From NCBI GenBank assembly GCA_031386895.1, contig JANNCT010000041.1, forward strand, positions 881 through 64,880: a stretch of DNA of 64,000 nucleotides, in the 5' to 3' direction. Under the pieces are notes generated by a model that worked only from the letters and a program-made list of their open reading frames with translations, searched no databases and was not told where the DNA came from. The first letter of the stretch is position 1. The number at the start of each line of letters is the position of its first letter. This document shows, piece after piece, positions 5,436-58,176 of the stretch. A program made the translations under genes and the position numbers. The stretch comes from Polaromonas sp. GTDB lineage: Bacteria; Pseudomonadota; Gammaproteobacteria; Burkholderiales; Burkholderiaceae_C.

Positions 5436-7295
5436 TTACCGCTTCACAGGCGGCAAGTCCGTACAACTTCCATGCGCGACCTCAGCCGCCATTCCAATCG
5501 ATTCCCCAAGCGTGGGGTGTGGGTGAATCGTTTTGCCGATGTCGATTGCATCAGCACCCATTTCAATAGCCAACGCAATCTCACCAATCATGTCGCCCGC
5601 ATGGGTGCCGACCATGCCGCCGCCCAGTATTTTGCCGTGGCCGTGTGCCTCGGGGCTGTCATCAAACAGCAGTTTGGTGACGCCTTCGTCCCGGCCGTTG
5701 GCAATGGCGCGGCCTGATGCTGTCCAGGGGAACAGGCCTTTTTTGATCTTGATGCCTTTTGCCTTGGCCTCGTCTTCCGTCAGGCCGACCCATGCGACTT
5801 CGGGGTCGGTGTAGGCGACGCTTGGGATGACTCTGGCGTTGAAGGCGGCGCTGGCGAGTTCTTTGTTGCCTTGCAGTTCGCCTGCGATGACTTCAGCGGC
5901 GACATGCCCTTCATGCACCGCCTTGTGCGCGAGCATGGGCTGACCAATGATGTCGCCGATGGCGAAGATGTGGGACACGTTGGTGCGCATCTGGATATCG
6001 ACGTTGATGAAGCCGCGGTCTGTGACGGCTACGCCTGCCTTTTCAGCGGCGAGCTTTTTGCCGTTGGGGGTGCGGCCTACGGCTTGCAGTACCAGGTCGT
6101 AGGTTTGTGGCTCTGGTGCCGCAACGCTTGCGTTGCCTCCAGCTTCGCCCGGCTCAGAGCTTTCAAACGTAACTTCGATACCAGCGGGCTTCGCCTTGGC
6201 ACCCACCGTTTTGGTTTTCAGCATGATGTTGTCAAAACGCGGCGCGTTCATCTTTTGCCAGATTTTGACCAGGTCGCGGTCAGCGCCTTGCATCAGGCCG
6301 TCCATCATTTCCACCACGTCCAGCCGTGCGCCCAGCGTGCTGTAGACCGTGCCCATTTCCAGACCGATGATGCCGCCGCCCAGAATCAACATGCGCTTGG
6401 GCACTTCTTTCAAGCCCAATGCGCCGGTGGAATCGACCACGCGCGGGTCGTCGGGCATGAAGGGCAAGCGTACAGCCTGGCTGCCTGCGGCGATGATGCA
6501 GTTTTTAAACGCAATAGTCTGGCTTTTTCCAGTTTTTTCCTGACCCTGCGCACCACTGGTTTCTTCAACCCGCAAATGGTTTGCCCCCACGAATTGGCCG
6601 ACACCGCGCACCACAGTTACCTTGCGCATTTTGGCCATCGCTGCCAGGCCGCCGGTGAGCTTGCCGATAACCTTGTCTTTGTGGCTGCGCAGCATGTCGA
6701 TGTTGACTTTGGGCGGGCCAAACTCAATGCCCAATGCGCCCAGGTGGCTGACTTCGTCCATCACTGCTGCTACGTGCAGCAATGCTTTCGACGGGATGCA
6801 GCCGACGTTCAGGCACACACCGCCCAGCGCGGCGTAACGCTCAACCAAAATGACTTTCAACCCTAGATCCGCCGCGCGGAAAGCAGCGCTGTAGCCGCCT
6901 GGGCCTGCGCCGAGTACCAGCAGGTCGCAGTCCAGATCGGCTGTGCCTGCGAAGCTGTTTGCAACTGGTGTTTTTGTAGCAACAGATGCTACTATTTCAG
7001 GAGCTGCTTGCGCCCGTATCTGTTGGGCTACAGGCTCTTTTGGCACCATATTAACGCCGGATTCAGCACTTTCAACACTTAAAACGACAGATCCTTGTTT
7101 GACCTTGTCGCCCAGCTTGACGTTGATCGACTTGACCACGCCCGCACTTGACGACGGAATTTCCATCGACGCTTTGTCGCTTTCAACGGTCAGCAAACTC
7201 TGGTCAACCTTGATGGTGTCGCCGACTTTCACCAGCAGTTCAATCACAGTGACTTCGTCAAAATCGCCAATATCGGGCACTTTAATTTCGAGCAT
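5436..7295 (-). CDS. lpdA: Dihydrolipoyl dehydrogenase (E3) with N-terminal lipoyl domain
   Basis: 619 aa. The N-terminal lipoyl domain carries [12 protein letters not shown]. Then come the FAD site [10 protein letters not shown], the redox disulfide [13 protein letters not shown] and the C-terminal HPHPTLGE. Confidence 0.95.
6989..7035 (+). repeat. 47-bp dispersed repeat, copy A (perfect 18-nt core), in frame in the lpdA lipoyl-domain linker
   Basis: ctactatttcagg AGCTGCTTGCGCCCGTAT ctgttgggctacaggc. Read on the minus strand as [16 protein letters not shown]. Confidence 0.9.
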
Positions 7296-7297
7296 GA

Positions 7298-7882
7298 CTA
7301 CACCTTCAGTTTCACTGAGTAAATATCGATTGGCCCGCCAGAGTTTTTGTCAAACTCGCAGCCTGCGTGCATGCCGGCCATGGCAACTTCTTTGGCGGTT
7401 TTGGATTTACCCCAAGCAGCATGCATGGCGCCCAGCGCAAAGCCGCGCCCTGTGCCGATACCCCAAAATTCCTTGAATTCAAAAATTTCGCGGTAACTGT
7501 ACAAGCCGTAAATTCCACTGGCATTGGCTATCAGCACAGTAAACTGCATCGACTCATACGGGTCGTTGTCGTCTTCTTTGGTTTGCAGAAAAAAGTTGTC
7601 TTTCAGCAGCGGGTGCAGCTTTAAAAACGTATCAAACACCTCGTCTTTGGAACCCAGCTTCAAATCTTCTTTGGGCAACGCCGTGATAGCCTTGCGCAGA
7701 GCCGGAAAGTGCGCCACGGTGCCCGCCATACCAATGTGGCTGATGCCTTGCGGGCCAGTGACCTTGAAGATTTTGCTGTTGGCTTCGAAGCGGTGCGGCA
7801 AGCGCGTATCACCAAACGTGACCATGGTGTCTGCGGCCATCACGACCTGGCCAGATTTGCGCACAACGACTACTGTGGTCAT
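7298..7882 (-). CDS. HslV-like proteasome-type Ntn hydrolase (BPH-type; no HslU partner nearby)
   Basis: 194 aa. The N-terminus [26 protein letters not shown] parallels E. coli HslV [26 protein letters not shown] (recalled from memory), with the Thr nucleophile right after Met. There is also a [15 protein letters not shown] glycine loop. The ATGA overlaps the aceF stop, and lpdA starts 2 nt after this gene ends. Confidence 0.7.
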
Positions 7883-9579
7883 AACAGAACCCGCCGGAAG
7901 TCGCTCAAAATTTGTCCGAGATAGGCATTAAAACGCGCAGCAGCTGCGCCATCGATAACTCGGTGGTCCCAAGTAAGAGACAGCGGCAACATCAGCCGTG
8001 GCTGAAATTCTGTGCCGTTCCACACGGGTTCCATATTGCTTTTGCACACACCCAAAATAGCGACTTCGGGCGCGTTGATGATGGGTGTGAAGTAACGCCC
8101 GCCAATACCACCCAGGCTGGAGATGGTGAAGCACGCGCCCTGCATTTCAGCCGGGCTGAGTTTGCCGTCCCGTGCTTTTTTGGCCAGCTCGCCCATCTCG
8201 GCGCTGATCTGCATCACGCCTTTTTTGTCGCAATCGCGAATGACGGGCACCATCAAACCGTTGGGGGTGTCGGCCGCAAAGGCGATGTGAAAGTATTGCT
8301 TGTAGACGATTGAATCACCATCAAGCGACGCATTGAAGTCTGGGAATTTTTTGAGCGCAGACACGCAAGCTTTGATGAGAAACGCAAGCATCGTTACCTT
8401 GATGCCCGACTTCTCGTTTTCTTTATTCGTCGCGACACGAAACGCTTCAAGGTCGGTGATGTCGGCATCGTCAAAGTTGGTGACTGCGGGAATGACGATG
8501 GCGTTACGCAGCAGGTTGGCACCGCTGATTTTTTTGATGCGGCCCATCTCCTTGCGCTCAATTGGGCCGAACTTGGCGAAGTCCACTTTGGGCCACGGTA
8601 GTAAGTCAATACCAACACCAGAACTACCTGATGCAGGAACTTTGGCAGCCTGCGCAACCGTTTGTACAGCGCCCGCCATCACCGACTTGGTGAACGCCTG
8701 CACGTCATCCATCGTGATACGGCCTTTGGGCCCCGCGCCTTTGACTTCGGCCAGCGGAACACCCAGCTCGCGTGCGAATTTGCGTACTGAAGGCGATGCG
8801 TGGGGCAGCGCGCCAGTAGGTGCGGTGGTGGGGTTGTGCGCGGGAGCGGCAACAGGCGCGGCTGCGATGGGCTGAGTGGATCCGGGATCAGACGAGGCGG
8901 AAACTGCTGGTGCAGGTGCCGGTGCAGGTGCAGGTGCAGGTGCTGGTGCAGGTGAGGCAACAGCAGCTGCCCCGTTCACCGCGGCCCCTTCCAGCACAGC
9001 AAGCAAGTCTCCAATATTGATCTTGTCACCCAGCTTGACTTTCAGATCTTTCAGCACGCCAGCGGCGGACGAAGGAATCTCCATGGAGGCTTTGTCAGAC
9101 TCCACAGTGACCAGCGATTGCTCAACCTTGATGCTGTCGCCCACCTTAACCAGCACTTCGATGACGGTCACGTCTTTGAAGTCGCCGATATCTGGCACAT
9201 GGATGTCGATTGGGCCACTGGAAGCAGGTGCAGGCGCAGCCGCCGCAGCGGGCGCTACTTTAGTTGCTATTATTTCAGAAGCTGCTTGCGCCCGTATTTC
9301 TTGCGCTGCAGGCACTTTTGATGCCAAATTCGAGTCTAAATCGGCACTTTCCAGGCTCAAAACGACAGATCCTTGTTTGACCTTGTCGCCGAGTTTGACT
9401 TTGACTTCTTTGACCACACCAGCTGCGCTCGACGGGATTTCCATCGAGGCTTTGTCTGACTCAACTGTCAGCAGCGACTGGTCTGCCTTGATAGTGTCGC
9501 CGGGCTTTACCAACAGCTCAATAACGGTAACTTCATCAAAATCACCAATGTCTGGAACTGCAATATCTATGGTTGCCAT
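7879..9579 (-). CDS. aceF: Dihydrolipoamide acetyltransferase (E2) of pyruvate dehydrogenase, two lipoyl domains
   Basis: 566 aa. It has two [12 protein letters not shown] lipoyl domains, Ala/Pro linkers including (AP)n, a subunit-binding domain (SPSVRKFARELGV) and the catalytic motif DHRVIDGA. Confidence 0.95.
   Translation of the reverse strand: MATIDIAVPDIGDFDEVTVIELLVKPGDTIKADQSLLTVESDKASMEIPSSAAGVVKEVKVKLGDKVKQGSVVLSLESADLDSNLASKVPAAQEIRAQAASEIIATKVAPAAAAAPAPASSGPIDIHVPDIGDFKDVTVIEVLVKVGDSIKVEQSLVTVESDKASMEIPSSAAGVLKDLKVKLGDKINIGDLLAVLEGAAVNGAAAVASPAPAPAPAPAPAPAPAVSASSDPGSTQPIAAAPVAAPAHNPTTAPTGALPHASPSVRKFARELGVPLAEVKGAGPKGRITMDDVQAFTKSVMAGAVQTVAQAAKVPASGSSGVGIDLLPWPKVDFAKFGPIERKEMGRIKKISGANLLRNAIVIPAVTNFDDADITDLEAFRVATNKENEKSGIKVTMLAFLIKACVSALKKFPDFNASLDGDSIVYKQYFHIAFAADTPNGLMVPVIRDCDKKGVMQISAEMGELAKKARDGKLSPAEMQGACFTISSLGGIGGRYFTPIINAPEVAILGVCKSNMEPVWNGTEFQPRLMLPLSLTWDHRVIDGAAAARFNAYLGQILSDFRRVLL
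9267..9313 (+). repeat. 47-bp dispersed repeat, copy B (perfect core), in frame in the aceF first linker
   Basis: ctattatttcaga AGCTGCTTGCGCCCGTAT ttcttgcgctgcaggc. Read as PAAQEIRAQAASEIIA. Confidence 0.9.
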
Positions 9580-15889: not shown

Positions 15890-15907
15890 TTCACCTCTTC
15901 CAAATTG

Positions 15908-15954
15908 CTATATATTTTATAGCTGCTTGCGCCCGTATCCATTTGGCTAACGGG
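15908..15954 (+). repeat. 47-bp dispersed repeat, copy C (perfect core), intergenic between the response regulator and folD
   Basis: ctatatattttat AGCTGCTTGCGCCCGTAT ccatttggctaacggg, followed by cgtttt. The segment GCCCGT..ACGGGC can pair. Confidence 0.9.
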
Positions 15955-15984
15955 CGTTTTTACTTGTAAATTCAAAAAATAGCC

Positions 15985-16957: not shown

Positions 16958-17404
16958 CTACCCTTCGCGTTGAACTCCTCGCGTTTCAGCTCGGCTTAAA
17001 CCCCAAAGCGCAAACCCCGCACACAACCACTGGCCGAAACACATCGCGGTGCCCAGGCCGTGCAGCAGCTTTAAATTACCACCATCAGCGCGCGCGCTGA
17101 CGATGCGCGGTGACAAGCCAAACTCCACCAGTACTGCCAGCAGCAGCCCAGTTACTATAAATTTAATAGCTGCTTGCGCCCGTATATCTTGGGCTACAGC
17201 TTCTTTTTGGTTGTAAATCAGAAGTAAAAACATGGCGCAGGCAATACTAAGCCAGGTTTGTGCAGTAAAAAGTTTGGCCGCCATCTGCCCTGCTGCTGCC
17301 GGGCTGGGCAAGTGTGAAAAGAGCATCGGCACGACCATAAAACCCAGCGCAGTCAGGCTGCCCCACCAAAGGGCGGCAATCATCACGCCAAAACGATAGC
17401 GCAT
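16958..17404 (-). CDS. Small integral membrane protein (DUF4149-like), adjacent to greA
   Basis: 148 aa with four hydrophobic segments. The family assignment rests on my recollection of the betaproteobacterial greA neighbourhood. It contains repeat copy D in frame. Confidence 0.6.
   Translation of the reverse strand: MRYRFGVMIAALWWGSLTALGFMVVPMLFSHLPSPAAAGQMAAKLFTAQTWLSIACAMFLLLIYNQKEAVAQDIRAQAAIKFIVTGLLLAVLVEFGLSPRIVSARADGGNLKLLHGLGTAMCFGQWLCAGFALWGLSRAETRGVQREG
17155..17201 (+). repeat. 47-bp dispersed repeat, copy D (perfect core), in frame in the DUF4149-like membrane protein gene
   Basis: ctataaatttaat AGCTGCTTGCGCCCGTAT atcttgggctacagct. Read as AVAQDIRAQAAIKFIV. Confidence 0.9.
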
Positions 17405-22831: not shown

Positions 22832-23605
22832 TTACTTCACAGCGATTGCGCTGGCATGCAGGCAAATCGCGGCGGCCGCGGCAACGTTCAGCGACTCTTC
22901 TCCGCCGGGCTGGCCAATGCGCACTTTAAAAGCAGCCTTGTCCATCAGAGCCTGGCTGACGCCCTGCCCTTCGTGTCCCATGACCCACGCACAGGGGCTG
23001 GGCAATCTTGCACTGCCGAGCACTGCGCCTTCGTGCGAGCTGGTGACCACCAGCGGCACGGTAAAAGCATCAAGCGATGTTGCATCAACGCCTTCAATCA
23101 GCTGCAATGCAAAGTGCGCGCCCATGCCGGCCCGCAGCGCTTTGGGCGACCACAACGCAGCCGTGCCTTTGAGTGCAACGACTTGCGCAAAACCAAACGC
23201 AGCGGCGCTGCGCAAGATGGAGCCGACATTGCCCGCGTCTTGCACGCGGTCAAGTATGACGGTTGCAACCTTTGGCTCGAGGGCTGCGGCTTCAGGCAAG
23301 TCGAGCACAAAAGCCATGCTGGCTGGCGACTCCAGGCCACTGATCTGCGCAAACAGATGATCTGAAACTACTATGTTTTTTATAGCTGCTTGCGCCCATT
23401 TTGATTGGGCTATAGGCCAAAAAGACTCTGAATAAAGGGCTATTTGCGGCTTTAAACCGCGCTCCAGCGCGGCCCTGCACAGGTGGTCGCCTTCCAGCCA
23501 CACGCGACCCTGTTTGCGGTACGCTGTGCTGCCTGCGTTGAGCTTGCGCAGCTCGGCTATCAGCGGGTTGTCCCGCGAGGTGATCAGCGTGGGGTCTGCG
23601 GTCAC
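22832..23605 (-). CDS. TrmH/SpoU-family RNA 2'-O-methyltransferase
   Basis: 257 aa. SpoU motifs [31 protein letters not shown] and [14 protein letters not shown]. It contains repeat copy E in frame. Confidence 0.85.
23371..23417 (+). repeat. 47-bp dispersed repeat, copy E, in frame in the TrmH-family methyltransferase gene
   Basis: ctatgttttttat AGCTGCTTGCGCCCATTT tgattgggctataggc. Read as [16 protein letters not shown]. Confidence 0.85.
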
Positions 23606-24228: not shown

Positions 24229-25441
24229 CGGTTGCCAATTTGGAGGTGTCACGCTGCAACTCGCTGTGCAAAGCGGTAAAGCGCTGTTCAAGTGCCTGTA
24301 TTTTGGCAGGCGCCGATGTTTTAGCGTCGACCCAGCCCAAAACAGCTGTGGCCAATGCTTCGGGCGTCGCTGCGTTTTGAATCAGCTCTGGCACCACAAA
24401 ATCCTGACACAGAATGTTTGGCAGCCCAACCCACGGCTGCAGCTTTTTGCGTTTCATGATGTGCCAAGATAGCCAGTGCATGTTGTAGGCAATCACCATC
24501 GGGCGCTTGAACAGCGCGGCTTCCAGCGTGGCGGTCCCGCTGGCAATCAACGTCACGTCGCATGCTGCAAGGGCCAGGTGCGAATGCCCATCAGTGAACT
24601 GCACGGCACTGTGCACGCCCGCCTGCACCGCCAACTGCTCAATGCGCCCACGCAGCACAGGGATGCAAGGCACTATGAATTTAATAGCTGGTTGCGCCCG
24701 TAATATATGCGCTACAGCCTTAAAAAACCTTAAACCGAGGTACTGAATCTCTGAAGCCCTGCTGCCCGGCAGAATTGCCACCACAGTGTCTTCATCACGC
24801 AAACCCAGACGCGCCCGCGCGCCAGCACGGTCAATTTGCATCGGGATAACGCTGGCCAACGGGTGACCCACGTACGTCGCAGCAATACCGTGCTTTGCAA
24901 GCAGCGCGGGCTCAAACGGAAAAATACACAGCACATGGTCAACGCTGCGGTTGATTTTTTCAAGCCGCTCTGCGCGCCAGGCCCACACCGACGGGCAAAT
25001 AAAGTGAACGGTTTTGATGCCGCGTAGCTTGAGTGCAGCTTCCAGGTCAAGGTTAAAGTCAGGCGCATCCACACCTATAAATATGTCGGGCTGGTCTGCC
25101 AGCAGCCGCGTCTTGAGTTGGCTACGAATACCGACAATTTCACGGTAGTGGCGCAGCACTTCTACATAGCCCCGCACCGCGAGTTTTTCGCTTGGCCACC
25201 ACGCGTTGAAACCCTGCTTTGCCATCTGCTGGCCACCAATGCCGAATGATCGCAGGCCTGGCCAGCGCGACTTCAAACCATCGATGAACAGCGCCGCGAG
25301 CAGGTCGCCAGATGTCTCCCCAGCCACCATTGCCACACGAATGGAGCCCCCCACATTTGCCACTGCGTATGCTGCACCGCCCCCCACGGGGTCTGATCTT
25401 CCCGGGGGCGGCCCGTCGGAAGACCGCGGCGCATCATGCAT
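24200..25441 (-). CDS. lpxB: Lipid-A-disaccharide synthase
   Basis: 413-aa ORF. Contains [29 protein letters not shown] and [11 protein letters not shown]. The true start may lie downstream, near [16 protein letters not shown]. It contains repeat copy F in frame. Confidence 0.9.
24673..24719 (+). repeat. 47-bp dispersed repeat, copy F, in frame in lpxB
   Basis: ctatgaatttaat AGCTGGTTGCGCCCGTAA tatatgcgctacagcc. Read as [16 protein letters not shown]. Confidence 0.85.
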
Positions 25442-32149: not shown

Positions 32150-33337
32150 TCAAATCTCCATCTTCCGCGCAAAATCGGCGGCCATTGCACGCGCTTGTCC
32201 ATCAATAGCCAGCAGGTCATTGATGCCGCTGACATGGGATAGAACCAAGCGGTCTAAAGTTGCACGGTTGACAATGTAAATCTGATCGAACCGGATCTTT
32301 TTCGCCAAAAAAGCGGCCACGGCGATTTCATTGGCGGCGTTCAAAACAGCAGTTGTGCCGACCGGCGCTGCCAGCACCTCCCACGCCAATTGCATGCACG
32401 GAAATCGATTCGGATCAAGCGCTTCAAAGGTCATGGCTGCCAGCGCTTTGAAGTCCAGCGCTTTGGCACCGGAGGCCAGCCGACCCGGCCAAGCCAGCCC
32501 GTAGGCAATGGGTACGCGCATGTCGGGTGTGCCCATTTGCGCAACCACGGATGTGTCGAGGTATTGCACCATCGAGTGGACGGTGCTTTGCGGATGGATC
32601 ACCACTTCAATTTGCGCCGGCTGCAGCCCGAACAAATACTTGGCTTCGATGACTTCCAGCGCCTTGTTCATCATGGTGGCGGAGTCGACTGAAATTTTGC
32701 GGCCCATCACCCAATTCGGGTGGGCGCAGGCTTCTTCAGGCGTTACATTGCGCAGAGTCGTCAAATCGCGCGTACGAAACGGCCCGCCAGACGCGGTCAG
32801 AATAATTTTCTCAATGCGTTCAGCCCACGTCGCTGGGTCGTCGGGCAGCGACTGGAAGATGGCCGAATGCTCACTGTCAATCGGCAGCAGCTGTGCGCCA
32901 GCCGATCGCACAGCCTGCATGAATACTTCACCGCCGACCACCAGCGCCTCTTTGTTGGCCAATAGCAAACGTTTGCCGGCTTTCGCTGCCGCCATGCATG
33001 CGCCCAGGCCCGCCGCACCCACAATAGCCGCCATCACAGCGTCAACATCGACGTGTGACGCTATCATTTCAAGAGCTGCTTGCGCCCGTATTACTTCGGT
33101 TTTAAGACCTTTCTGTTTGATTTTTTGGCTTAGTACTTCAGCCTGCACATCATCGGCCATCACCGCAAAGCGCGGCTGAAATTTAACGCACTGGGCTAAA
33201 AGCAGCTCGGTTTGGGTGGCTGCGCTGAGAGCAAACACTTCAAATTTATCAGGGTGCATGGCAATCACGTCCAGCGTATTGACACCGACTGATCCGGTCG
33301 AACCCAAAACCGTGATGCGCTGCTTTCTCATCGTCAT
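32150..33337 (-). CDS. dxr: 1-deoxy-D-xylulose 5-phosphate reductoisomerase
   Basis: 395 aa. Contains [30 protein letters not shown] and HPNWVMG. It contains repeat copy G in frame. Confidence 0.95.
   Translation of the reverse strand: [395 protein letters not shown]
33061..33107 (+). repeat. 47-bp dispersed repeat, copy G (perfect core, right arm diverged), in frame in dxr
   Basis: ctatcatttcaag AGCTGCTTGCGCCCGTAT tacttcggttttaaga. Read as [13 protein letters not shown]. Confidence 0.8.
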
Positions 33338-33374: not shown

Positions 33375-34202
33375 AAGGCTGACCAGCATCATGGCCAAAG
33401 GCAGCGCTGGCAGGAGCGCATCCACACGGTCAAGCACGCCGCCGTGGCCCGGTAGCAAATTGCTGGAATCTTTGGCACCCGCAGCGCGTTTGACGAGTGA
33501 TTCGACCAAGTCACCGGCAACACTCATGGCCACCATGAACAAACCAGCTACGGCCAAAAACACCCAGCCGTGGCGCGCTTGCAATTGGGCATACAGATTT
33601 CCGTTCGAACGCGAGGCCCAAAAGGATGCCATGGCGAGCACGCACGCAATTGCGCCCCAAACCCCTTCCCAGGTTTTGCCAGGGCTGATGCTGGGCGCAA
33701 GCTTGCTTTTGGTAAAACGTCCCCCAAAACTACGGCCAGCGAAATAGGCGCCAATGTCAGCGACCCAAACCAGCAGCAACACTGACAGCAAAAACTCAAC
33801 GCCCCGCACGCGCGCCTGCGCTAGGGCTAACCAAGCCAGACACAAGGCAACTACGCCAACCGCCAATCGCAGTGTTTGCGGAATCTTGAGCCAAACAGAC
33901 GGGCCACGCGCCAGCAACCAGCCACCGGCCAAAACCCAGGCAGCGCCCGTCACAACCCACAGCACCGGCATCGCCATGCCAATAACTCCATAAAACCATG
34001 CTGTAGCGCATATAAACAGAGCGCAAGCAGCTATAAAAAGTGAAGTACTCTGGCTGAAGCCATTCAGCTTTCCCCACTCCCACGCGGCCGCACCAATTAG
34101 CACGAGTGCTACTGCGTTAAAGGCAACCGGGTTGGGGTAGAACAGCGCTGGAAGCAATACAGCCAGTAAAGCCACGGCGGTAACAATGCGCGTTTTGAGC
34201 AT
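33372..34202 (-). CDS. cdsA: Phosphatidate cytidylyltransferase
   Basis: 276 aa, polytopic. Carries the CdsA signature SVAGDLVESLVKRAAGAKDSSNLLPGHGGVLDRVD. It contains repeat copy H in frame. Confidence 0.93.
   Translation of the reverse strand: MLKTRIVTAVALLAVLLPALFYPNPVAFNAVALVLIGAAAWEWGKLNGFSQSTSLFIAACALFICATAWFYGVIGMAMPVLWVVTGAAWVLAGGWLLARGPSVWLKIPQTLRLAVGVVALCLAWLALAQARVRGVEFLLSVLLLVWVADIGAYFAGRSFGGRFTKSKLAPSISPGKTWEGVWGAIACVLAMASFWASRSNGNLYAQLQARHGWVFLAVAGLFMVAMSVAGDLVESLVKRAAGAKDSSNLLPGHGGVLDRVDALLPALPLAMMLVSL
33999..34045 (-). repeat. 47-bp dispersed repeat, copy H (reverse orientation), in frame in cdsA, read in the sense frame of the element
   Basis: The reverse complement is cttcactttttat AGCTGCTTGCGCTCTGTT tatatgcgctacagca. 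Read as FIAACALFICATA, within a TM helix. Confidence 0.8.
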
Positions 34203-38176: not shown

Positions 38177-38439
38177 GTAAATACTCCAAAAGGTTGTGTC
38201 TAAAATCAGCGCTTATCGTCAGAAAATGCTTCTGGCAACACCTTGAATGGCTAATTTGCGATTTACTTCGCAGTTCGGGCGAAATGCCTGCCGCAAAGCT
38301 TGTCGAGTATAGCACCCTCACGGGCCAATTTCACCTCGCCCTATGACCGTTGCTGCCTTGGAAAATATCACGCAGCGCGCCTTAACTGCGTGGTCAGGTA
38401 CCTGCCAGTTAGGTGCCCGCGCACCGGCCAGATAAAACG

Positions 38440-38486
38440 CTACCAAAATAATAGCTGCTTGCGCCCGTATTTATTGCGCTACAGAT
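38440..38486 (+). repeat. 47-bp dispersed repeat, copy I (perfect core), intergenic between divergent rpsB and dadA
   Basis: ctaccaaaataat AGCTGCTTGCGCCCGTAT ttattgcgctacagat. Confidence 0.9.
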
Positions 38487-38555
38487 TGAATTGATCAAGA
38501 ATATGAACACGAAAAAGTTAGTTAACGCGTTATTGCCAAAGCTGGGGCAACAGGT

Positions 38556-39827
38556 ATGAAAATCGCCATCATTGGCGCGGGCATCATTGGCATCACTACG
38601 GCTTACGAACTGGCTGTTGACGGGCATGAAGTGACGGTTTTTGAAAGGCGCGGAGCCGCCGCAGAAGAAACCAGTTTTGCCAACGCGGGCGTGGTCGCGC
38701 CAGGCTGGGTGACGCCATGGGCAGCGCCCGGTATGCCGGGCAAAGTGCTGGGTAACCTGATGAGCCGCCACGCTGCCGTCAAGCTCAGCTGGCCGTTGTC
38801 TACAGGCGACTTGGCGTGGATGTGGAAATGGTGGCGCGCCTGCAAGCTTGAGACTTACCTTGCCAACCGTGCACGCCTTCAGCGTTTGGCGTTTTACAGC
38901 CGTGAACGGCTGCACCACATCACGGCTGAATTGCAGCTAGACTACGACCGCGCAGGCGGCTATACCGTGCTGCTGCGCACTGAAAAAGACAGTCGAATGG
39001 TGCAGCCCGGCCTGGTGGTGCTGCGCGATGCAGGCGTGCATTTCAGCGAAATCGATGCCGAGGCGGTGCGCAAAATAGAACCGGCCATCAACCCCGACAC
39101 TGAATTTTTAGGCGGCATCCACCTGCCGCAAGATGAGGTTGCAAATTGCCGCCAATTCGCACTGATGCTAAAAGACGTTGCCCGCGGAATCGGCGTCAAT
39201 TTCGAGTTTAATTCGACTGTGGCGCAATTAAATCGGGCGCAAGCAGCTATTGTTTTAATAGTAAACAGCAACAGCGGCCAGGATGAATCCCGCAGCTTTG
39301 ATGCAGTGGTGGTGTGCGCAGGCCTGGCCTCAAGCGCGCTGCTCAAATCGCTTGGCTTGCGCATTTCGATGGCGGCGGTGTACGGCTACTCCATCAGCGC
39401 GCCGATTCGTGAGCCACTGAACGCGCCGCGCAGCGCGCTGATGGATGAGCGCTACAAAGTCGCCATTTCGCGCCTGGGCAACCGCGTGCGGGTAGCGGGT
39501 GGTGCCGAGTTGGGCGGATCTTTAACCGGGCGGCGCGCATCGTCCATTCAGACACTTTACAAAGTCTTGCACGACTGGTTTCCGGGCGCAGTGCAGCATG
39601 CCAACACCGGAGCCAGCGTGCAGCTGTGGAAAGGCGCCCGCCCGATGCTGCCGGATGGCCCACCCATCATTGGGGCCAGTGGCACGCCGGGCGTGTGGCT
39701 GAACCTCGGGCACGGCTCCAGTGGTTGGGCCCTCAGCTGCGGCAGCGCGCGGGCCCTGGCCGACCAAATTGCCGGGAAAAAGCCCGACATTGACATGAGC
39801 GGACTGGACATTGGACGTTTGCCTTGA
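38556..39827 (+). CDS. dadA: D-amino acid dehydrogenase (FAD-dependent)
   Basis: 423 aa. Begins MKIAIIGAGIIGITTAYELA (Rossmann fold). Collinear with E. coli DadA as I recall it (PGWVTPWAAPG, LNLGHGSSGW). It contains repeat copy J in frame. Confidence 0.88.
   Translation: MKIAIIGAGIIGITTAYELAVDGHEVTVFERRGAAAEETSFANAGVVAPGWVTPWAAPGMPGKVLGNLMSRHAAVKLSWPLSTGDLAWMWKWWRACKLETYLANRARLQRLAFYSRERLHHITAELQLDYDRAGGYTVLLRTEKDSRMVQPGLVVLRDAGVHFSEIDAEAVRKIEPAINPDTEFLGGIHLPQDEVANCRQFALMLKDVARGIGVNFEFNSTVAQLNRAQAAIVLIVNSNSGQDESRSFDAVVVCAGLASSALLKSLGLRISMAAVYGYSISAPIREPLNAPRSALMDERYKVAISRLGNRVRVAGGAELGGSLTGRRASSIQTLYKVLHDWFPGAVQHANTGASVQLWKGARPMLPDGPPIIGASGTPGVWLNLGHGSSGWALSCGSARALADQIAGKKPDIDMSGLDIGRLP
39215..39261 (-). 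repeat. 47-bp dispersed repeat, copy J (reverse orientation), in frame in dadA
   Basis: The reverse complement is ctattaaaacaat AGCTGCTTGCGCCCGATT taattgcgccacagtc. Read in dadA as VAQLNRAQAAIVLIV. Confidence 0.85.
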
Positions 39828-40444: not shown

Positions 40445-41980
40445 ATGCAAAAGATCACTTCTGCACACGGCCATGCCCTGTTTAGCGTAGCAGCCACAAG
40501 GCGTATTGAGGACCGCGCGGCGGCTCTCTTGCCGCCCTTTACATTGATGCATCGCGCAGGTTTGTCGGTTGCCCAACTCACCCTCGCGCTGGCCCCGCAC
40601 GCCAAAAACATCTGGATGGCCTGCGGCCCCGGCAACAACGGCGGTGACGGCTTTCAAGCTGCCATGCACCTGCACCAGTGGAGCAAGAAAGTCACCGTGA
40701 CCTGCGTTGAGCCAGGCCCAAAGGGACTACCGCCTGATGCTGCAGCAGCGCGCGAGCACGCCTTGGCTGCTGGAGTCGCCTTTACGGCCCAGCCGCCTGA
40801 AGATTTTGATTTTTGCGTTGACGCGCTGCTAGGCCTGGGCGGCTCAAGCGCACTGCGCGGCAGTCGGCCAGGAACGCGGTTGATGCTCGACTGGCTTGAC
40901 GCAATGCGCACCAGCGCTGCGCCATGCCTTGCGGTCGACGTGCCCACTGGACTTGACTGCGATACAGGCGTTATTTACAGTGCCTCAAACGCTATTTATT
41001 CAGGAGCTGCTAGCGCCCAGATTTATTCGCCCAAAGCCCTTTTTACCTTGAGCTTATTGACATTGAAACCCGGTTTGTTCACAGCCCACGGACGTGATGC
41101 AGCAGGCCAGGTGTGGTTTGACGCCCTGGGGGTCAGCCCCGAAGTTGAGCCACTCACTGCGCACCTGCTCGGCGCAGATGCCGTTGCACCATTTGGTCGC
41201 AGATTGGCGCGACACGACAGCCACAAAGGCGTGTTTGGCGACGTTGCGGTGGTTGGCGGCCAGTCGACGGACACGAGCCACATGGTTGGCGCTGCGCTGC
41301 TGGCTGCACGGGCGGCACTGCATGCGGGCGCTGGCCGCGTGTTTGTGGCGCTACTGGGTAATGGCGGCCCAGGCTTCGACGTTATGCAGCCGGAGCTGAT
41401 GTTTCGCAGCTTTGACGCCCTGGATCTGGAAAATTGCACCGTGGTGTGCGGCTGCGGCGGCGGCAATGCCGTTCAAGCTGTACTGCCAAAGGTTTTATCT
41501 GCCGCGCCAAAGCTGGTGCTGGACGCAGATGCCTTGAACGCAATCGCCACTGATGCTGCGTTGGTGCAACTCTTGAAAGCCAGAAGCGGCCAAGGGTACA
41601 GCACCGTACTGACACCCCATCCGCTCGAAGCAGCCCGCTTGCTGGGAACGACCGCTGCGCAGGTGCAATCAGACAGGCTTGAAGCTGCGCAGCGGCTCTC
41701 CTCGATCTTCAGCGCTGTGGTGGTACTTAAAGGTTCGGGCACCGTTATCGCGATGCCTGAACACGCGAGCCGCATCAACTACAGCGGCAATGCAACGCTT
41801 TCCACCGCTGGCACTGGCGATGTATTGGCAGGCATGGTGGGGGCCGGTTTGGCAGCTGGATCAGCAGCGTTTGAAGCGGCCTGCGCCGCCGTATTCAGGC
41901 ACGGAGAAGTAGCAGACAAGTGGTCGGCGCAGCAAAACGGCCTGCGTTTGACCGCTTCTGGCCTGGCTGCTGCGATCTGA
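40445..41980 (+). CDS. nnr: Bifunctional NAD(P)H-hydrate repair enzyme (epimerase / ADP-dependent dehydratase)
   Basis: The ORF opens at the TTG at 40436, and the first ATG is at 40445. YjeF_N motif CGPGNNGGDG and a C-terminal kinase-like domain (GTGDVLAG). It contains repeat copy K in frame. Confidence 0.88.
   Translation: MQKITSAHGHALFSVAATRRIEDRAAALLPPFTLMHRAGLSVAQLTLALAPHAKNIWMACGPGNNGGDGFQAAMHLHQWSKKVTVTCVEPGPKGLPPDAAAAREHALAAGVAFTAQPPEDFDFCVDALLGLGGSSALRGSRPGTRLMLDWLDAMRTSAAPCLAVDVPTGLDCDTGVIYSASNAIYSGAASAQIYSPKALFTLSLLTLKPGLFTAHGRDAAGQVWFDALGVSPEVEPLTAHLLGADAVAPFGRRLARHDSHKGVFGDVAVVGGQSTDTSHMVGAALLAARAALHAGAGRVFVALLGNGGPGFDVMQPELMFRSFDALDLENCTVVCGCGGGNAVQAVLPKVLSAAPKLVLDADALNAIATDAALVQLLKARSGQGYSTVLTPHPLEAARLLGTTAAQVQSDRLEAAQRLSSIFSAVVVLKGSGTVIAMPEHASRINYSGNATLSTAGTGDVLAGMVGAGLAAGSAAFEAACAAVFRHGEVADKWSAQQNGLRLTASGLAAAI
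40992..41038 (+). repeat. 47-bp dispersed repeat, copy K (diverged), in frame in nnr, read in the sense frame of the element
   Basis: ctatttattcagg AGCTGCTAGCGCCCAGAT ttattcgcccaaagcc. Read as AIYSGAASAQIYSPKA. Confidence 0.7.
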
Positions 41981-51694: not shown

Positions 51695-51718
51695 GAGAGC
51701 GCAGTGAGCATGCATTTG

Positions 51719-51765
51719 CTATTAAATTAGTAGCTTTTAGCGCCCGAATCTATTGGGCTAAAGCA
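51719..51765 (+). repeat. 47-bp dispersed repeat, copy L (diverged core), intergenic between convergent bdhA and the LysR gene
   Basis: ctattaaattagt AGCTTTTAGCGCCCGAAT ctattgggctaaagca. Confidence 0.75.
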
Positions 51766-51827
51766 CTAAATTTCCCAAAAAAGCCTTTTAAATTCTATGA
51801 AATGCATGGTTTGCCGCTGCTGGTGTT

Positions 51828-52730: not shown

Positions 52731-52792
52731 GTAGAAGTTCCAAAAAGTGCAATGGTCAGGCAAGTAGACCACGGCTTGCAGCACGATATTTT

Positions 52793-52811: not shown

Positions 52812-52905
52812 AAGAATAACCGTAATGCACCGGCTGGGGCTTCCACATTTGCGCTGCGCCTGTGACCATTGCCCTGCTGGTTCAAATAACATCCTGGAGA
52901 CAACA

Positions 52906-54702
52906 ATGGCAAAAATGAAGGCCGCTATGGCCGCAGTGCTGGTGATGGAAAAAGAAGGCGTGACGCAGGCCTTTGGCGTACCGGGCGCGGCGATTAACCC
53001 GCTGTACGCAGCCATGCGTGAGCGGCAATCCATCGCGCACATTCTGGCGCGCCACGTAGAGGGCGCATCACACATGGCCGAGGGGTACACGCGGGCCATT
53101 GCCGGCAATATTGGCGTGTGTATTGGCACGTCAGGCCCCGGCGGCACCGACATGATTACCGGTTTGTATTCAGCCATTGCCGACAGCATTCCCATTTTGT
53201 GCATCACTGGGCAGGCACCCCGAGCACGGCTGTACAAAGAAGATTTTCAGGCGGTAGACATAGAGTCGATTTCCAAGCCCGTCACGAAGTGGTCTTACAC
53301 CGTGCGGGAACCTGGCCAGCTGCCACGGGCTTTTCAGCAGGCGTTTCATTTGATGCGTTCAGGCCGGCCAGGCCCGGTGCTGCTGGACTTGCCGTTTGAT
53401 GTGCAAATGGCTGAAATTGAGTTTGACATCGATACCTACGAGCCCCTGCCGGTGCACAAACCTGCTGCCACACGCAATCAAATCGACAAGGCACTCGATA
53501 TGCTGTGCGCAGCCAAAAACCCACTGATAGTTGCGGGCGGCGGCATTATCAACGCCGACGCCAGCGCTTTGCTCGTCGAGTTCGCGGAGCTGACCGGCGT
53601 GCCGGTGATTCCCACGCTCATGGGCTGGGGTGCCATCCCTGATGATCACCCCTTGATGGCAGGCATGGTAGGCCTGCAAACCAGCCACCGTTACGGCAAC
53701 GCCACCATGCTGGCCAGTGACTTTGTGCTGGGCATTGGCAACCGCTGGGCGAACCGCCATACCGGCTCGACCGAGGTGTATTGCAAGGGCCGCACCTTTG
53801 TACACGTTGACATTGAACCGACCCAAATTGGCCGCGTTTTTACGCCCGATTACGGCATCGTGTCTGACGCCAAAGCGGCACTGAAGTTGTTTGTAGAAGC
53901 AGCGCGGGAGCGCAAGGCGGCCGGCCAACTGCCAAGTCGAAGCGACTGGGCACACCGCTGCGCCGAGCGCAAGCGCCTCATGCACCGCAAAACGCACTAC
54001 GACAACATTCCCATCAAACCGCAGCGCGTGTATGAAGAAATCAACCAGGCGTTTCCGCGCGACACGGTGTACGTCAGCAACATTGGTTTGAGCCAAATTG
54101 CAGCTGGCCAGTTTCTAAACATTTACGGCCCGCGCCAGTGGATCAATTGCGGGCAGGCCGGGCCACTGGGCTGGTCCATGCCAGCCGCGCTCGGCGTGGT
54201 GGCTGCTGACCCCACACGCACTGTGGTGGCAGTTACCGGCGACTATGACTTTCAGTTTTTGCTGGAAGAGCTGGCCGTGGGCGCGCAATTCAAACTGCCG
54301 TACGTGCATGTGCTGGTCAACAATTCTTACCTGGGCTTGATACGCCAAAGCCAGCGCGGTTTCGACATGGATTTTTGTGTGCAACTGGCGTTTGACAATA
54401 TCAACGTGCCAGAGTCGGAAGACAACCTGCGCAGCTACGGCGTGGACCACGTCAAGGTGGTGGAAGGCCTGGGTTGCAAGGCACTGCGCGTCAAGGACCC
54501 GGCCGACATTCAGGCGGCATTGCGCCAGGCACAAGTCATGGCGCAACAGTTCCGGGTACCAGTGGTGGTCGAGATGATCCTTGAGAAAGTCACTAACATT
54601 GCAATGGGCACCGAGATCGACAAAGTCAATGAATTTGAAGACATCGACTGCCGCCACCCCGAAGGCCTGAAGGGCCTGGAATTGGCTGGCCTGCTTGAGT
54701 AA
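52906..54702 (+). CDS. gcl: Glyoxylate carboligase (tartronate-semialdehyde synthase)
   Basis: The preferred start [34 protein letters not shown] follows GGAGA. It is near-collinear with E. coli Gcl ([34 protein letters not shown]), recalled from memory. Confidence 0.93.
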
Positions 54703-56531: not shown

Positions 56532-58103
56532 ATGCAACGACTCGGGCCAATTCTTCAATTTTTAGGCACGCAAGGCAACGCCTGGGGCGTTAGTGCGCTG
56601 GTGGTGATCGATGCGGCAGACGCTGCGCCAAGCTTGAGCCTGTCCGCCTCAGCCACCGTCACCCGCGTTTCCTGCCCGGTGCCAGGGCAAGCCGCAACCG
56701 CGTGGCGCTTTGACTTTGCCGTACCGCAAACCGCGCAAAGCCAGGTGGTGGCGTACACCGTTGGCGGAAAACACTTTAGCTTCGTGGTGCCAGGGCTCAA
56801 CGCCATGCCCAGTCTGGCGTACGCGTCGTGCAACGGGTTTTCAAGCCTGAGTGCGATGAAGTCTGTACCCGTGCCCAACGCGCTGTGGGCACGCATGCAG
56901 CGCCTGCACAGGCTGCAAGACAAAGTCGATAACCAGACGTATGGCCCCTACCATTTGCTGCTACTCGGCGGCGACCAGGTTTACAGCGACGGCATGTGGG
57001 CGGTGCTGCCCGACATGCAAGCTTGGGCGCAGCTTGACCGCCCCGCGCGCGTGGCAGCGCCGTTCACCGCCGCCATGCAATCTGCCCTGACGGCCTACTT
57101 ATCAAAAATGTACCTTGAGCGTTGGTCGCAGCCCGATGTAGCTGCCGCACTGAGCAGCATCCCCACGGTGATGATGTGGGACGACCACGACATCATGGAC
57201 GGCTGGGGTTCGCACCCCGCTGACTTGCACGAGTGCGCGGTGTTTCAAGGCATTTACAAAGTTGCTCGGGCCGCGTTTGAATTGTTTCAGCGGCAGATCA
57301 TGCAGCCCGGTGCACACGCTCCAGCCACCCTGCCTGGCCAAAGCGCGCACAGCAGCGGGTACCGCATGGGCGCAGCCGGGCTGCTCACGCTGGACATGCG
57401 CAGCGAGCGCAGCCCGCGCTCGGGCGATATCGACGCCGTGGGTGGCGTACTGCACGCAGAACAAGTCATGAGCCAGGCCAGCTGGCGTGCGGTGTTCCAG
57501 TGGCTGGATGCGCAAGAAGCGGCTGGCGATATGAAGCACTTGTTTGTAATGAGCAGCATTCCGGTTGTTCACCCCAGCTTTGAACTGCTGGAAAAACTGC
57601 TGGGCATTTTCCCCGGCCAGCAAACATTGGAAGACGACCTGCGCGACCACTGGACCAGCCCGCCGCACAAGGCCGAGCGCCTGCGGCTGATTCACCGGCT
57701 GCTGGCTGCAAGCGCCAAGGGTATTCGCGTCACGTTGCTGTCTGGCGACGTGCATGTGGCGGCCATCGGCGTGATTGAGTCTGACCGCAGCAGCGCCTCA
57801 AGCACCGCGCGGGTGGTCAACCAGCTGACGTCCAGCGGCATCGTGCACTCGCCGCCGCCGGGCGTAGCGCTCTTCTTTTTAGAGCAAGCGTGCCAGCGCG
57901 TTGAGCAGATCGACCGCGGCATCACTGGCACGATGTACGAGTTTCCCACCACCAGCCACCGCATGATTGGCGCGCGCAATTTCTTAACACTGCAGCCAGA
58001 TACGCCCAACGCGCAAGGGCTGACGCAGCAGCGCTACTGGGCCAACTGGTGGGCTGAGGGCGAGCCGCACCCTTATACGAAGGTGATTCATACGGTGGGC
58101 TAA
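56532..58103 (+). CDS. PhoD-like metallophosphatase family protein (no signal peptide seen)
   Basis: Metallophosphoesterase-like motifs GGDQVYSDG, MMWDDHDIMDGWGS and LSGDVHVAAIG. The preferred ATG is at 56532 (MQRLGPILQF). Confidence 0.7.
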   Translation: MQRLGPILQFLGTQGNAWGVSALVVIDAADAAPSLSLSASATVTRVSCPVPGQAATAWRFDFAVPQTAQSQVVAYTVGGKHFSFVVPGLNAMPSLAYASCNGFSSLSAMKSVPVPNALWARMQRLHRLQDKVDNQTYGPYHLLLLGGDQVYSDGMWAVLPDMQAWAQLDRPARVAAPFTAAMQSALTAYLSKMYLERWSQPDVAAALSSIPTVMMWDDHDIMDGWGSHPADLHECAVFQGIYKVARAAFELFQRQIMQPGAHAPATLPGQSAHSSGYRMGAAGLLTLDMRSERSPRSGDIDAVGGVLHAEQVMSQASWRAVFQWLDAQEAAGDMKHLFVMSSIPVVHPSFELLEKLLGIFPGQQTLEDDLRDHWTSPPHKAERLRLIHRLLAASAKGIRVTLLSGDVHVAAIGVIESDRSSASSTARVVNQLTSSGIVHSPPPGVALFFLEQACQRVEQIDRGITGTMYEFPTTSHRMIGARNFLTLQPDTPNAQGLTQQRYWANWWAEGEPHPYTKVIHTVG

Positions 58104-58129
58104 AAACAGGAGAATTTATAGTGTTTTAG

Positions 58130-58176
58130 GCTTCTAGCGCAATGAATACAGGCGCAGACAGCTATAAAAAACATAG
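58130..58176 (-). repeat. 47-bp dispersed repeat, copy M (reverse orientation), intergenic between the convergent PhoD-like and aldehyde dehydrogenase genes
   Basis: The reverse complement is ctatgttttttat AGCTGTCTGCGCCTGTAT tcattgcgctagaagc. The left arm is identical to copy E. Confidence 0.8.

Follow-up and report, generated by a model that had tools for sequence, protein, structure and literature searches.

The DNA of Polaromonas carries an asymmetric repeat element of ~110 bp, which consists of a box and, flanking it on one side, helically phased A/T tracts. The element lies preferentially outside genes, is conserved between species in a position-specific manner, and where it coincides with coding sequence it mostly overlays the gene without changing its length. 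We tentatively read it, at a probability of roughly 40%, as a duplex element that is bound and bent by a protein in a role similar to that of REP/BIME elements, which selection maintains and conversion copies into sequence that resembles it.

Size and spread of the repeat family

The window, i.e. the whole 64-kb stretch of DNA that was analysed, contains six exact copies of the 18-mer AGCTGCTTGCGCCCGTAT and five copies with up to three mismatches. This count of 11 was reached in 0 of 100 shuffles of the window (shuffle mean 0.08), which agrees with an earlier note on this DNA that had judged the repeat to be far beyond chance. The window was then scanned with a profile built from the 11 copies, and 13 gap-free copies were obtained, 10 on the forward and three on the reverse strand (Table 1), at a density of ~1 copy per 5 kb. 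The number of copies, and of identical cores among them, is that given in the earlier note, and copy-by-copy gene placement likewise confirmed that nine copies are located within intact open genes and four are intergenic. The partial copy in cdsA is weak and the least secure member of the family.

Table 1. Copies of the repeat in the 64-kb window. Host or flanking genes are given with their coordinates and strand in brackets.
Copy	Position	Strand	Core or score	Setting	Reading
A	6983..7043	+	exact	antisense in lpdA (5436-7295, -)	17 residues
B	9262..9321	+	exact	antisense in aceF (7879-9579, -)	PAAQEIRAQAASEIIAT
C	15902..15962	+	exact	intergenic, response-regulator gene (ends 15889) / folD (starts 15985)	
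D	17149..17207	+	exact	antisense in DUF4149 gene (16958-17404, -)	AVAQDIRAQAAIKFIVT
E	23366..23425	+	2 mismatches	antisense in SpoU/TrmH-type methylase gene (22832-23605, -)	17 residues
F	24668..24726	+	2 mismatches	antisense in lpxB (24200-25441, -)	17 residues
G	33057..33112	+	exact	antisense in dxr (32150-33337, -)	EVIRAQAALEMIAS
cdsA partial	33997..34039	-	23.6 bits, E 1.9e-6	sense-oriented in cdsA (33372-34202, -)	
H	38435..38494	+	exact	divergent intergenic, rpsB (ends 38176, -) / dadA (starts 38556, +)	
dadA	39207..39265	-		antisense in dadA (38556-39827, +)	TVAQLNRAQAAIVLIVN
nnr	40986..41045	+		sense in nnr (40436-41980, +)	NAIYSGAASAQIYSPKA
Convergent 1	51714..51770	+		intergenic, short-chain dehydrogenase gene (ends 51694) / LysR gene (-)	
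Convergent 2	58122..58179	-		intergenic, PhoD-like gene (ends 58103) / aldehyde dehydrogenase gene (-, 3' end 58194)	

The exact 18-mer recurs at more than 111 loci in at least 24 species-level assemblies, almost all of which are labelled Polaromonas, in line with the dispersed family, rather than a local duplication, that had been proposed. A look at relatives had been suggested as well: many Polaromonas assemblies carry the motif, and the family was absent from 952 kb of relatives' DNA. The repeat family of Polaromonas is real and clade-wide. Copies were also present in a phage genome, and none were found on plasmids.

No description of a Polaromonas repeat element of this kind was found in the literature, and the element is lineage-specific and previously undescribed. 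The Betaproteobacterial repeat element (BRE), which is ~90 bp long, has been reported from Bordetella and, most often (29 copies), from Polaromonas sp. JS666, and is mostly intergenic with some copies wholly within coding sequences (Hot et al. 2011, PMC3110155). In these respects it is similar to the element. BRE has a G+C content of 64-79%, is often arranged in tandem and reads TTTTTTTGGCCGCGGGCCGCCCAAGGCAAAAAAGCCCCC... (PMC3110155). Identity of the two was rejected, as the sequences differ and MAFFT finds no colinear similarity.

Anatomy and genomic location

The earlier note had described a repeat of 47 bp. This stretch is indeed conserved, but it is only the best-conserved part of an element that extends over ~75-110 bp. 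Behind a sharp left boundary lies a box of ~50 bp, made up of GCTAT, ~9 A/T-rich bases, AGCTGCTTGCGCCCGTAT, ~4 bases and TTGGGCTA-N-AGGCC. On one side of the box only, ~6 A/T tracts follow each other at a distance of one helical turn (10.5 bp); the phasing covers model positions ~15 to 121 on the 3' side with a spectral power of 16x the median, and it is absent from the left flank. In the window, the phased tail of copy A runs on to ~7105 with a phasing score of 6.7 (~99th percentile of random window positions), the tails of copies B and E score 8.1 (>99th percentile) and 10.9, respectively, and convergent copy 1 has a typical A-type tail. Strong covariation was confined to adjacent bases, with AAA and TTT replacing each other at one and the same position. 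The 18-bp core holds 25 bits of information and the whole element ~70 bits over at least 75 bp; the latter is far above the need of one ordinary binding site and equally fits copies related by descent.

Eight inverted pairs were identified, each composed of one TTT-type and one AAA-type half with outward-facing boxes and a gap of 96-107 bp. Their centres are constant in length and unconserved in sequence, and no target-site duplication was found at their outer borders. Solo halves account for ~92% of copies, and a paired unit of ~216 bp may therefore be secondary.

Density was highest between convergent genes (2.8 copies per kb), followed by tandem (1.1) and divergent (0.57) intergenic regions and by coding sequence (0.09); these values are approximate, as loci had been sampled for the presence of the exact 18-mer and gene calls were home-made. 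Within genes, 62 of 202 classified copies (~31%) were located. As for orientation, which the earlier note had raised, no preference relative to transcription was seen in tandem intergenic regions (36 vs 41), and with respect to GC skew the two orientations are only weakly biased (116:82).

In all 15 orthologous copy pairs, a small sample biased towards alignable flanks, the copy was present at the same site and with the same length in both species. Consensus positions were 87% identical between orthologous copies and variable positions 61%. The lone copy without a called partner (L020 vs L088) differed by substitution and not by an indel. For the window copies, orthologous copies were found in L069 (copy C) and in L108 (copy H, dadA and nnr), and at copy D the L069 ortholog is of equal length and differs by substitutions; between the orthologs of copy H 45 of 50 consensus positions and 9 of 23 variable positions are kept, and the flanks are unalignable.

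Copies within genes

The earlier note had considered that a REP/MITE-like element may be inserted into genes and tolerated there, as are the Rickettsia palindromic elements (RPEs). For most coding copies this is contradicted by gap-free alignments of equal length. In 14-40 relatives without the family, the SpoU methylase, LpxB and Dxr are just as long; copies F and G lie in segments that align without gaps with E. coli LpxB and Dxr, respectively, and the DUF4149 Pfam profile was matched without an insertion at copy D. Across the dadA copy, the protein is as long as in the closest relative, L118, which reads VARLEQAQPASLIIA in the native segment overlaid by the repeat, and small indels occur in more distant relatives. 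Copy E overlays a native AQAAIKNIV, which is present in relatives too. The left arm of copy G coincides with the native ALEMIA codons of dxr, and its right arm is missing because TEV is conserved in Dxr.

Compared with relatives, the bases that differ in coding copies are just those needed for the consensus, and for most coding copies tested native codons have been replaced base for base, without insertion. The peptide AQAA is encoded by GCG-CAA-GCA-GCT in 27 of 46 cases, for which 0.3% is expected from codon usage; the pressure acts on the DNA and not on the protein.

The sole candidates for insertion could be the nnr copy and the linkers that hold copies A and B, which follow the lipoyl domain of LpdA and lipoyl domain 1 of AceF. 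Among the window copies only that in nnr has the look of an insertion: it lies in a loop whose length varies and which exceeds that of the closest relative by ~12 residues.

RPEs likewise lie in frame inside housekeeping genes, encode a recurrent peptide and have old copies that are common to orthologous sites between species. However, they add residues to their hosts, and an insertion of the RPE or MITE type fails for Dxr, LpxB, the SpoU methylase, DUF4149 and, compared with its closest relative, DadA, none of which has gained residues. Even the extra residues of nnr are far fewer than the length of the element would give. RPE copies deteriorate with time, whereas the consensus positions of the element stay fixed.

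Candidate explanations

According to our preferred reading, a host protein would recognise the box and the phased arm would bend or wrap around it. Functionally, the element would be comparable to the enterobacterial REP/BIME elements, whose copies downstream of genes are bound by gyrase and IHF. The copies of the element lie for the most part just outside genes, chiefly between convergent ones, and purifying selection would maintain the consensus positions. The family probably originated as a mobile or duplicating unit of ~216 bp, because the inverted pairs have two box ends and a fixed spacing; there is no sign of present-day movement by insertion. Copies within genes would have arisen by replacement, in which a stretch similar beforehand, where the protein already reads like the translated element (e.g. 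xAQxIRAQAAxKxIV), would be overwritten towards the consensus by ectopic gene conversion or templated repair, and the change would be retained solely where the peptide is tolerated. Against this reading stand the ~70 bits of the element, the ~92% of solo copies and the inefficiency of gene conversion at ~75% prior identity; a drive by point mutation would lead to the same outcome.

REP/BIME elements (enterobacteria, pseudomonads; RAYT transposases) share several features with the element: they occur in hundreds of copies, are specific to a species or genus, lie chiefly downstream of genes and between convergent ones, show no target-site duplication, combine two sequence types, inverted at fixed spacing, into a mosaic unit as in the eight pairs described here, and probably function as double-stranded DNA that is bent or wrapped by bound proteins (IHF, gyrase), as the element may do as well. 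The start of the box, (G/A)(T/G)AGC, loosely recalls the GTAG head of REPs (PMC2817692). In contrast to the imperfect palindrome of 20-40 nt and the stem-loop of REP/BIME, the box is non-palindromic and has no conserved stem, the element has roughly twice the length of a REP, and its six phased A/T tracts all lie on one side. REP/BIME elements are extragenic, whereas nine of the 13 window copies and almost a third of the classified copies lie in genes as length-preserving overlays; this share is unlike that of REP/BIME elements and counts against the reading preferred here. Protein clustering of the surroundings of the copies revealed no recurrent protein family, and no RAYT gene was seen there; a single-copy gene may lie elsewhere in the genome.

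The second candidate of the earlier note was a recognition motif whose spread is due to biased recombination. DNA that bears the box would have an advantage with the competence machinery or in a recombination step, improved partial matches would be transmitted preferentially, and the motif would accumulate in place wherever it is tolerated. The uptake signal sequences of Pasteurellaceae (USS) and Neisseriaceae (DUS) are thought to spread by such preferential transmission. In-place substitution of unchanged length in genes whose peptide was already compatible, the overriding of codon choice, conservation at orthologous sites across species and confinement to one clade are as in USS and DUS and speak for this part of the proposal. 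The use of both orientations with a weak GC-skew bias fits as well, as do the share of copies in genes and the enrichment in gene-distal intergenic regions; DUS have a similar genic and intergenic distribution. Moreover, a core followed by one-sided, helically phased A/T tracts recalls the extended Haemophilus USS. The scale of the element speaks against it: its ~70 bits compare with cores of 9-12 bp in known uptake sequences, its conserved stretch is longer by a factor of five to eight, phasing extends over six tracts and not two, and its density is about a fifth of the ~1 per 1 kb of USS and DUS. Inverted pairs at a fixed distance of ~100 bp, where USS and DUS form tight terminator palindromes, imply a structural unit that a point-mutation drive would not create, and copies also occur in the phage genome. 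For Comamonadaceae, sequence-specific uptake is not known to us, nor did a search of the literature reveal any. An uptake-signal-like motif is rather unlikely.

A selfish, non-autonomous transposon is quite unlikely. The element would be MITE- or REPIN-like, with a mobile unit either of ~216 bp, bounded by long terminal inverted repeats, or of ~108 bp and one-ended; its transposase would be encoded elsewhere, and the solos would be decayed halves. The long inverted ends of a MITE are present in the pairs, with outward-facing boxes and constant length, and the sharp left boundary and high information content are as for copies related by descent; the abundance between genes, the nnr copy in its expanded loop and the phage copies also suit this proposal. 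Several transposon ends, for example those of IS10 with IHF, furthermore have a comparable layout, with a bent subterminal region behind a specific end. However, target-site duplications are absent in 8/8 pairs, most coding copies are not insertions, and the 15 orthologous pairs, few and biased towards alignable flanks, were all filled and revealed no clean-indel presence/absence polymorphism, the L020/L088 difference being a substitution. A decaying selfish element would not conserve its consensus across species while variable positions and flanks are saturated, and variable positions far apart are not linked into subfamilies. Protein clustering of 830 kb around copies uncovered neither a recurrent transposase nor any other recurrent protein family, and an insertion sequence that could be the parent, having a transposase and ends like those of the element, was found neither in these 830 kb nor in the window, on plasmids or among phage records. 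When 20 ORFs of the window, namely the less obvious ones and several hosts of the repeat, were scanned with Pfam, neither a transposase nor an integrase was detected, as the earlier note had stated for the window, and plasmids are free of copies.

The hairpin put forward in the earlier note can be drawn but is unsupported. RNAalifold returned no consensus structure for 235 copies, no long-range covariation was seen among copies, and single copies were no more stably folded than their shuffled versions (z -0.05 to -2.2), with the exception of copy C (z -2.8), whose core GCGCCCGT pairs with ACGGGCG downstream of the box, followed by a T run as in a terminator. In Rfam, no window copy was covered by a match at gathering score, and two loci with six copies gave none at E<=1. 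No consensus structure was thus seen, be it of RNA or of single-stranded DNA. An RNA-level element (3' UTR stabiliser, terminator or small RNA) acting via a hairpin is very improbable given these results, the lack of orientation preference relative to transcription and the AAA/TTT swap at one position, which suits duplex bending and not RNA pairing, even though copies are enriched downstream of genes and the core, in copy C and on two viral contigs, supplies the 5' half of a hairpin that precedes a T run and resembles a terminator.

Finally, it is somewhat unlikely that the family is a new kind of genomic signal: a long duplex recognition box (at least 50 bp) with a built-in curved arm, which spreads not through insertion but by overwriting pre-similar sequence including essential coding DNA. 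The overwriting could proceed by biased uptake or recombination, as with a giant uptake signal, or by a dedicated templated conversion. If this were true, a 70-bit consensus would be steadily imposed on hundreds of sites of a bacterial genome.

Extent and anatomy of the family

The 18-mer AGCTGCTTGCGCCCGTAT occurs six times exactly in the window and a further five times with up to three mismatches, against a mean of 0.08 in dinucleotide-preserving shuffles. A profile built from 11 copies recovered, at unchanged coordinates, the 13 gap-free copies described in an earlier note (10 on the plus and 3 on the minus strand), including the six with an identical core; the copy in cdsA is weak (23.6 bits in the profile search). 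Translation gave open reading frames at all nine copies that had been placed within genes, and Pfam scans of 20 window ORFs agreed with the earlier note in detecting no transposase or integrase. Of the host genes, Dxr and LpxB were identified by PDB sequence search, DUF4149, the SpoU-type methylase and Nnr by Pfam, and LpdA, AceF, CdsA and DadA from their sequences. The start codons of two ORFs look over-called, as the E. coli LpxB match begins at residue 34 of the 413 aa LpxB ORF and the HTH domain at residue 173 of a 469 aa LysR-type ORF. Elsewhere in the window, a gene for a YhcG/DUF1016 PDDEXK nuclease adjoins that of a type I restriction R subunit (HsdR), a defence-type segment bordering the housekeeping region. 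A 194-aa ORF lies between aceF and lpdA, its sole Pfam match being a weak N-terminal one to the Proteasome family (E 6.6e-6, residues 2-54), and between dadA and nnr there is a gene for a small BON-LysM protein. The sole Rfam match in the window is a tRNA gene (RF00005, 67.5 bits).

In a species-representative genome collection of 596 Gb, exact matches to the 18-mer occur in more than 111 stretches from at least 24 assemblies, where by our own arithmetic about 17 matches would be expected by chance. The family is therefore dispersed across the clade and is not a local duplication. Among the matches listed, labels were almost all Polaromonas, with a few unclassified Burkholderiales MAGs, which makes the 18-mer a near-specific marker. 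It also exposed a contig (L097, CALRUM020000005.1) in a MAG labelled Asaia bogorensis, which is orthologous to three Polaromonas loci (L016, L036 and L066), has an identical gene set and shares their intragenic copy (SFGLLAHEIRAQAA...); the contig probably comes from Polaromonas and was mis-binned into an acetic-acid-bacterium MAG. Within the 768 kb of loci bearing the 18-mer, those outside the window having been selected for an exact match, the profile matched 225 times. No real copies were present in 952 kb around dxr of relatives (Dxr 65-79% identical), where the profile gave no more than weak matches, at the orthologous sites in lpxB, SpoU and dxr. Extrapolated from the window density of one copy per 4.9 kb, the genome-wide copy number would be several hundred to a thousand.

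The 47-bp unit of the earlier note corresponds to the conserved segment, but the full element is longer. Two alignments, an ungapped profile (228 copies) and a gapped one (150 intergenic copies), gave the consensus A.ttGCTATtaATTtAgTAGCTGCTTGCGCCCGTATTtATTGGgCTA.AGgCctATTTgAt.c.tAAAAa.ggcc, with a sharp left and a fading right border. After removal of one ascertained copy per locus, the remaining 124 copies yielded an information content of about 70 bits (left arm 17, core 25, right arm 14, tail 13); matches to these four blocks are nearly independent of one another. In 176 intergenic copies, A/T peaks were located at model positions ~15, 27, 38, 48, 59, 70, 81, 91, 101, 111 and 121. Beyond position 64 the spectral peak lies at 10.5 bp with a power of 16x the median, and the left flank of the same copies shows no 10.5-bp A/T periodicity. 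The period is also seen in individual sequences. Among coding copies, phased-tail scores were 10.9 in SpoU, 8.1 in aceF, 6.8 in DUF4149 and 6.7 in lpdA (99th percentile of the null: 7.0); the copies in lpxB (1.3) and dxr (-1.3) have no phased tail. Helix-phased A/T tracts in which A and T are interchangeable are a classical mark of intrinsically bent or protein-wrapped DNA.

Length-preserving coding copies, placement and conservation

The central result is that the coding copies are length-preserving overlays and not insertions. Dxr and LpxB align without gaps to their E. coli counterparts over the repeat (Dxr: window EVIRAQAALEMIAS, E. coli EVLSGQQAACDMAA; LpxB: E. coli FLKTAQLLRQTYPDLEIVVP). 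At the repeat, the length of the SpoU methylase, LpxB and Dxr is that of 14-40 family-free relatives, and DadA is as long as its closest relative (L118), with small indels in more distant ones; the DUF4149 domain follows its Pfam profile residue by residue. That no residues were added in Dxr, LpxB, SpoU, DUF4149 and, compared with L118, DadA contradicts the insertion into coding sequence previously considered, and sets the element apart from Rickettsia palindromic elements, for which added residues are the criterion. The nnr copy alone looks insertion-like, with about 12 extra residues in a variable-length loop, far fewer than the element would add. The lpdA and aceF copies sit in inter-domain linkers and may be either insertions or overlays.

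The origin of the overlays can be followed in relatives. In dxr, the left arm GCTATCATTTCAAGAGC consists of native ALEMIA codons common to relatives, and DNA comparison shows that about six base changes in the window lineage produced the perfect 18-mer; there is no right arm, since its place is taken by the conserved residues TEV. SpoU relatives already encode AQAAIKNIV at the repeat, and lpxB relatives likewise carry the compatible 11-residue peptide. In one relative's locus (L115) the left 26 bases are identical to the window, and the other differences of the window mainly bring the remainder closer to the consensus. Of the nine genic copies, seven run antisense to their gene and are read in one frame, xAQxIRAQAAxxxIV, which in a wider sample accounts for 24 of 44 intragenic copies, the rest being read in four other frames. 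Within the called genes, GCG-CAA-GCA-GCT encodes 27 of 46 AQAA peptides, where codon usage predicts 0.3%; the observed share is inflated because the loci were chosen for the core, but its direction is clear. The motif also imposes ATA, a rare Ile codon (7% usage). The pressure at coding copies thus acts on DNA.

Genes were called with a home-made codon log-odds caller that was checked on known genes. Out of 202 classifiable copies, 62 are intragenic (0.09 per kb), 77 lie between tandem genes (1.1 per kb), 51 between convergent genes (2.8 per kb) and 12 between divergent genes (0.57 per kb). From these densities, the element preferentially lies 3' of genes and keeps away from promoters, a placement shared with DUS and one in which, as in its proposed role, it resembles REP/BIME. 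Tandem intergenic copies are co-oriented with the genes in 36 cases and opposed in 41. Orientation is weakly related to local GC skew (116:82), on which ground a replication-tied orientation of the Chi, KOPS or IS200 type was rejected, and the 10:3 strand bias of the window is mostly due to the orientation of the genes and to the frame in which copies are preferentially read.

Four loci from other species (L069, L108, L085 and L010) are orthologous to the window at 75-84% DNA identity, and copies C (upstream of folD), D (in the DUF4149 gene) and H (between rpsB and dadA) as well as those in dadA and nnr are found at the same places in these species. Among motif-bearing species, orthologous copies share site and length in 15 of 15 pairs. 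One further copy (L020 vs L088), for which no partner was called, differs by substitutions only, as do strong and weak versions of a copy. Orthologous pairs are 87% identical at consensus and 61% at variable positions, in a comparison biased to sites with alignable flanks; the intergenic copy H, the flanks of which are unalignable, kept 45 of 50 consensus and 9 of 23 variable positions. Since the consensus was kept while variable positions diverged, the copies are not neutral relics of an old transposition burst. They are either under purifying selection or have their consensus restored by drive or conversion.

An uptake-signal-like drive, corresponding to the recognition motif suggested in the earlier note, is rather unlikely. 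The in-place origin of coding copies speaks for it, as they arise in the manner of USS/DUS, but the element differs from these signals in its length, its information content and its fixed-spacing pairs. No report of uptake sequences in Comamonadaceae was found in the literature searched.

Inverted pairs and mobility

Eight facing pairs with a gap of 96-107 bp form units of about 216 bp, and about 92% of copies have no partner. At model positions 56-58, each of the eight combines a TTT half with an AAA half, and the centres differ in sequence at constant length. The resemblance between halves at variable positions is no greater within pairs than across them (0.38 vs 0.40), so that no hairpin constraint is apparent. 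That the spacing is fixed while the sequence is free speaks for a structural unit, which would stem from a mobile ancestor or be imposed by a protein complex.

The paired form resembles BIME/REPIN, and a MITE of Polaromonas JS666, for which PMC10969869 cites Mattes et al. 2008, may be a related element. A MITE or REPIN that is still active nevertheless appears quite improbable: no target-site duplication was found at the eight pairs, and no recurrent protein family or transposase adjoins the copies. REP/BIME are defined by a palindrome and an extragenic location, whereas the element lacks the palindrome and is not confined to extragenic sites. BRE, which has most of its copies in Polaromonas JS666, some of them inside genes (Hot et al. 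2011, PMC3110155), was rejected because the sequences in the supplement are unrelated to the element. One locus (L006) harbors two complete inverted-pair units with similar centres and partly similar right flanks, which looks like a tandem duplication of gene and element and not like transposition.

No copies were present in plasmid and phage record collections, and IMG/VR yielded six contigs with one or two copies each. One of them (L193, IMGVR_UViG_3300037346_000552) encodes a primase-helicase, TerS, TerL and a head-tail joining protein and is therefore a genuine phage fragment; by our own translation, its TerL copy uses the IRAQAA frame known from the host genes.

Coordinates of repeat copies, repeat-related arrangements and other features in the window and in loci of other assemblies
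Sequence	Positions	Strand	Feature
Window	1-6900		no repeat copy
Window	1174-5254	-	nuclease and HsdR genes
Window	7298-7882	-	194-aa ORF
Window	15902-15962	+	copy C
Window	15921-15958		terminator-like arrangement in copy C
Window	17149-17207	+	copy D
Window	24200-25441		LpxB ORF
Window	38435-38494	+	copy H
Window	39898-40416	+	BON-LysM protein gene
Window	47479-47552	-	tRNA gene
Window	51828-53237		LysR-type ORF
L069	~1390-1450		terminator-like arrangement
L192 (viral contig)	2689-2730		terminator-like arrangement
L195 (viral contig)	1236-1277		terminator-like arrangement
L193 (viral contig)	11131-11182 and 2993-3035		two copies, one within the TerL 3' end
L006	6474-6693 and 7609-7830		inverted-pair units, 1.1 kb apart
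L097	around 3134		repeat in contig of Asaia-labelled MAG

Mode of action and significance

An element working at the RNA level is highly improbable, and the hairpin described in the earlier note likewise finds no support, since RNAalifold on 235 copies gave no consensus structure on either strand, long-range covariation is lacking and, copy C excepted, the folding of single copies does not surpass that of shuffles (z -0.05 to -2.2). Mutual information is high solely between adjacent columns, the strongest signal being an AAA/TTT swap at model positions 56-58. Distant variable positions show no linkage, and hence no clear subfamilies exist. That a 220-nt pair folds into a long hairpin (z -4.2) is a trivial result of its inverted arms, and no Rfam family matched the repeat. 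Given the lack of RNA structure, the covariation between neighbours only and the lack of orientation bias, the element appears to act as duplex DNA and not as RNA or a single-strand hairpin. In some copies a terminator-like hairpin is formed by the core GCGCCCGT and an ACGGGCG downstream of it, with a T run behind (copy C: z -2.8); the ortholog L069 retains this arrangement, which is also seen on two viral contigs.

Starting from the observed anatomy, location, conservation and overlay, we infer a duplex element that would be bound by a protein and bend DNA, would be kept by selection and have a mobile ancestry, and whose coding copies would have arisen by conversion of sequence that was already similar. 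To this tentative reading as a whole we assign a probability of about 0.4.

The core sequence was not mentioned in the literature searched and, as far as this literature shows, the family, which is real, is undescribed and has an unusual combination of properties. Insertion is the usual explanation for long dispersed repeats in bacteria, and motifs with an in-place origin (USS, DUS, Chi, HIP1) are short. The family unites a REP/MITE-like length and information content with length-preserving coding overlays that override codon usage, and its host genes include the essential dxr, lpxB, aceF and lpdA. If the element is a protein-bound site of curved DNA, an unknown nucleoid, topology or recombination factor would exist in Polaromonas, a widespread genus of cold environments. 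Should it be a signal for uptake or conversion, sequence-biased gene exchange would reach the Comamonadaceae, with a signal much longer than the known ones.
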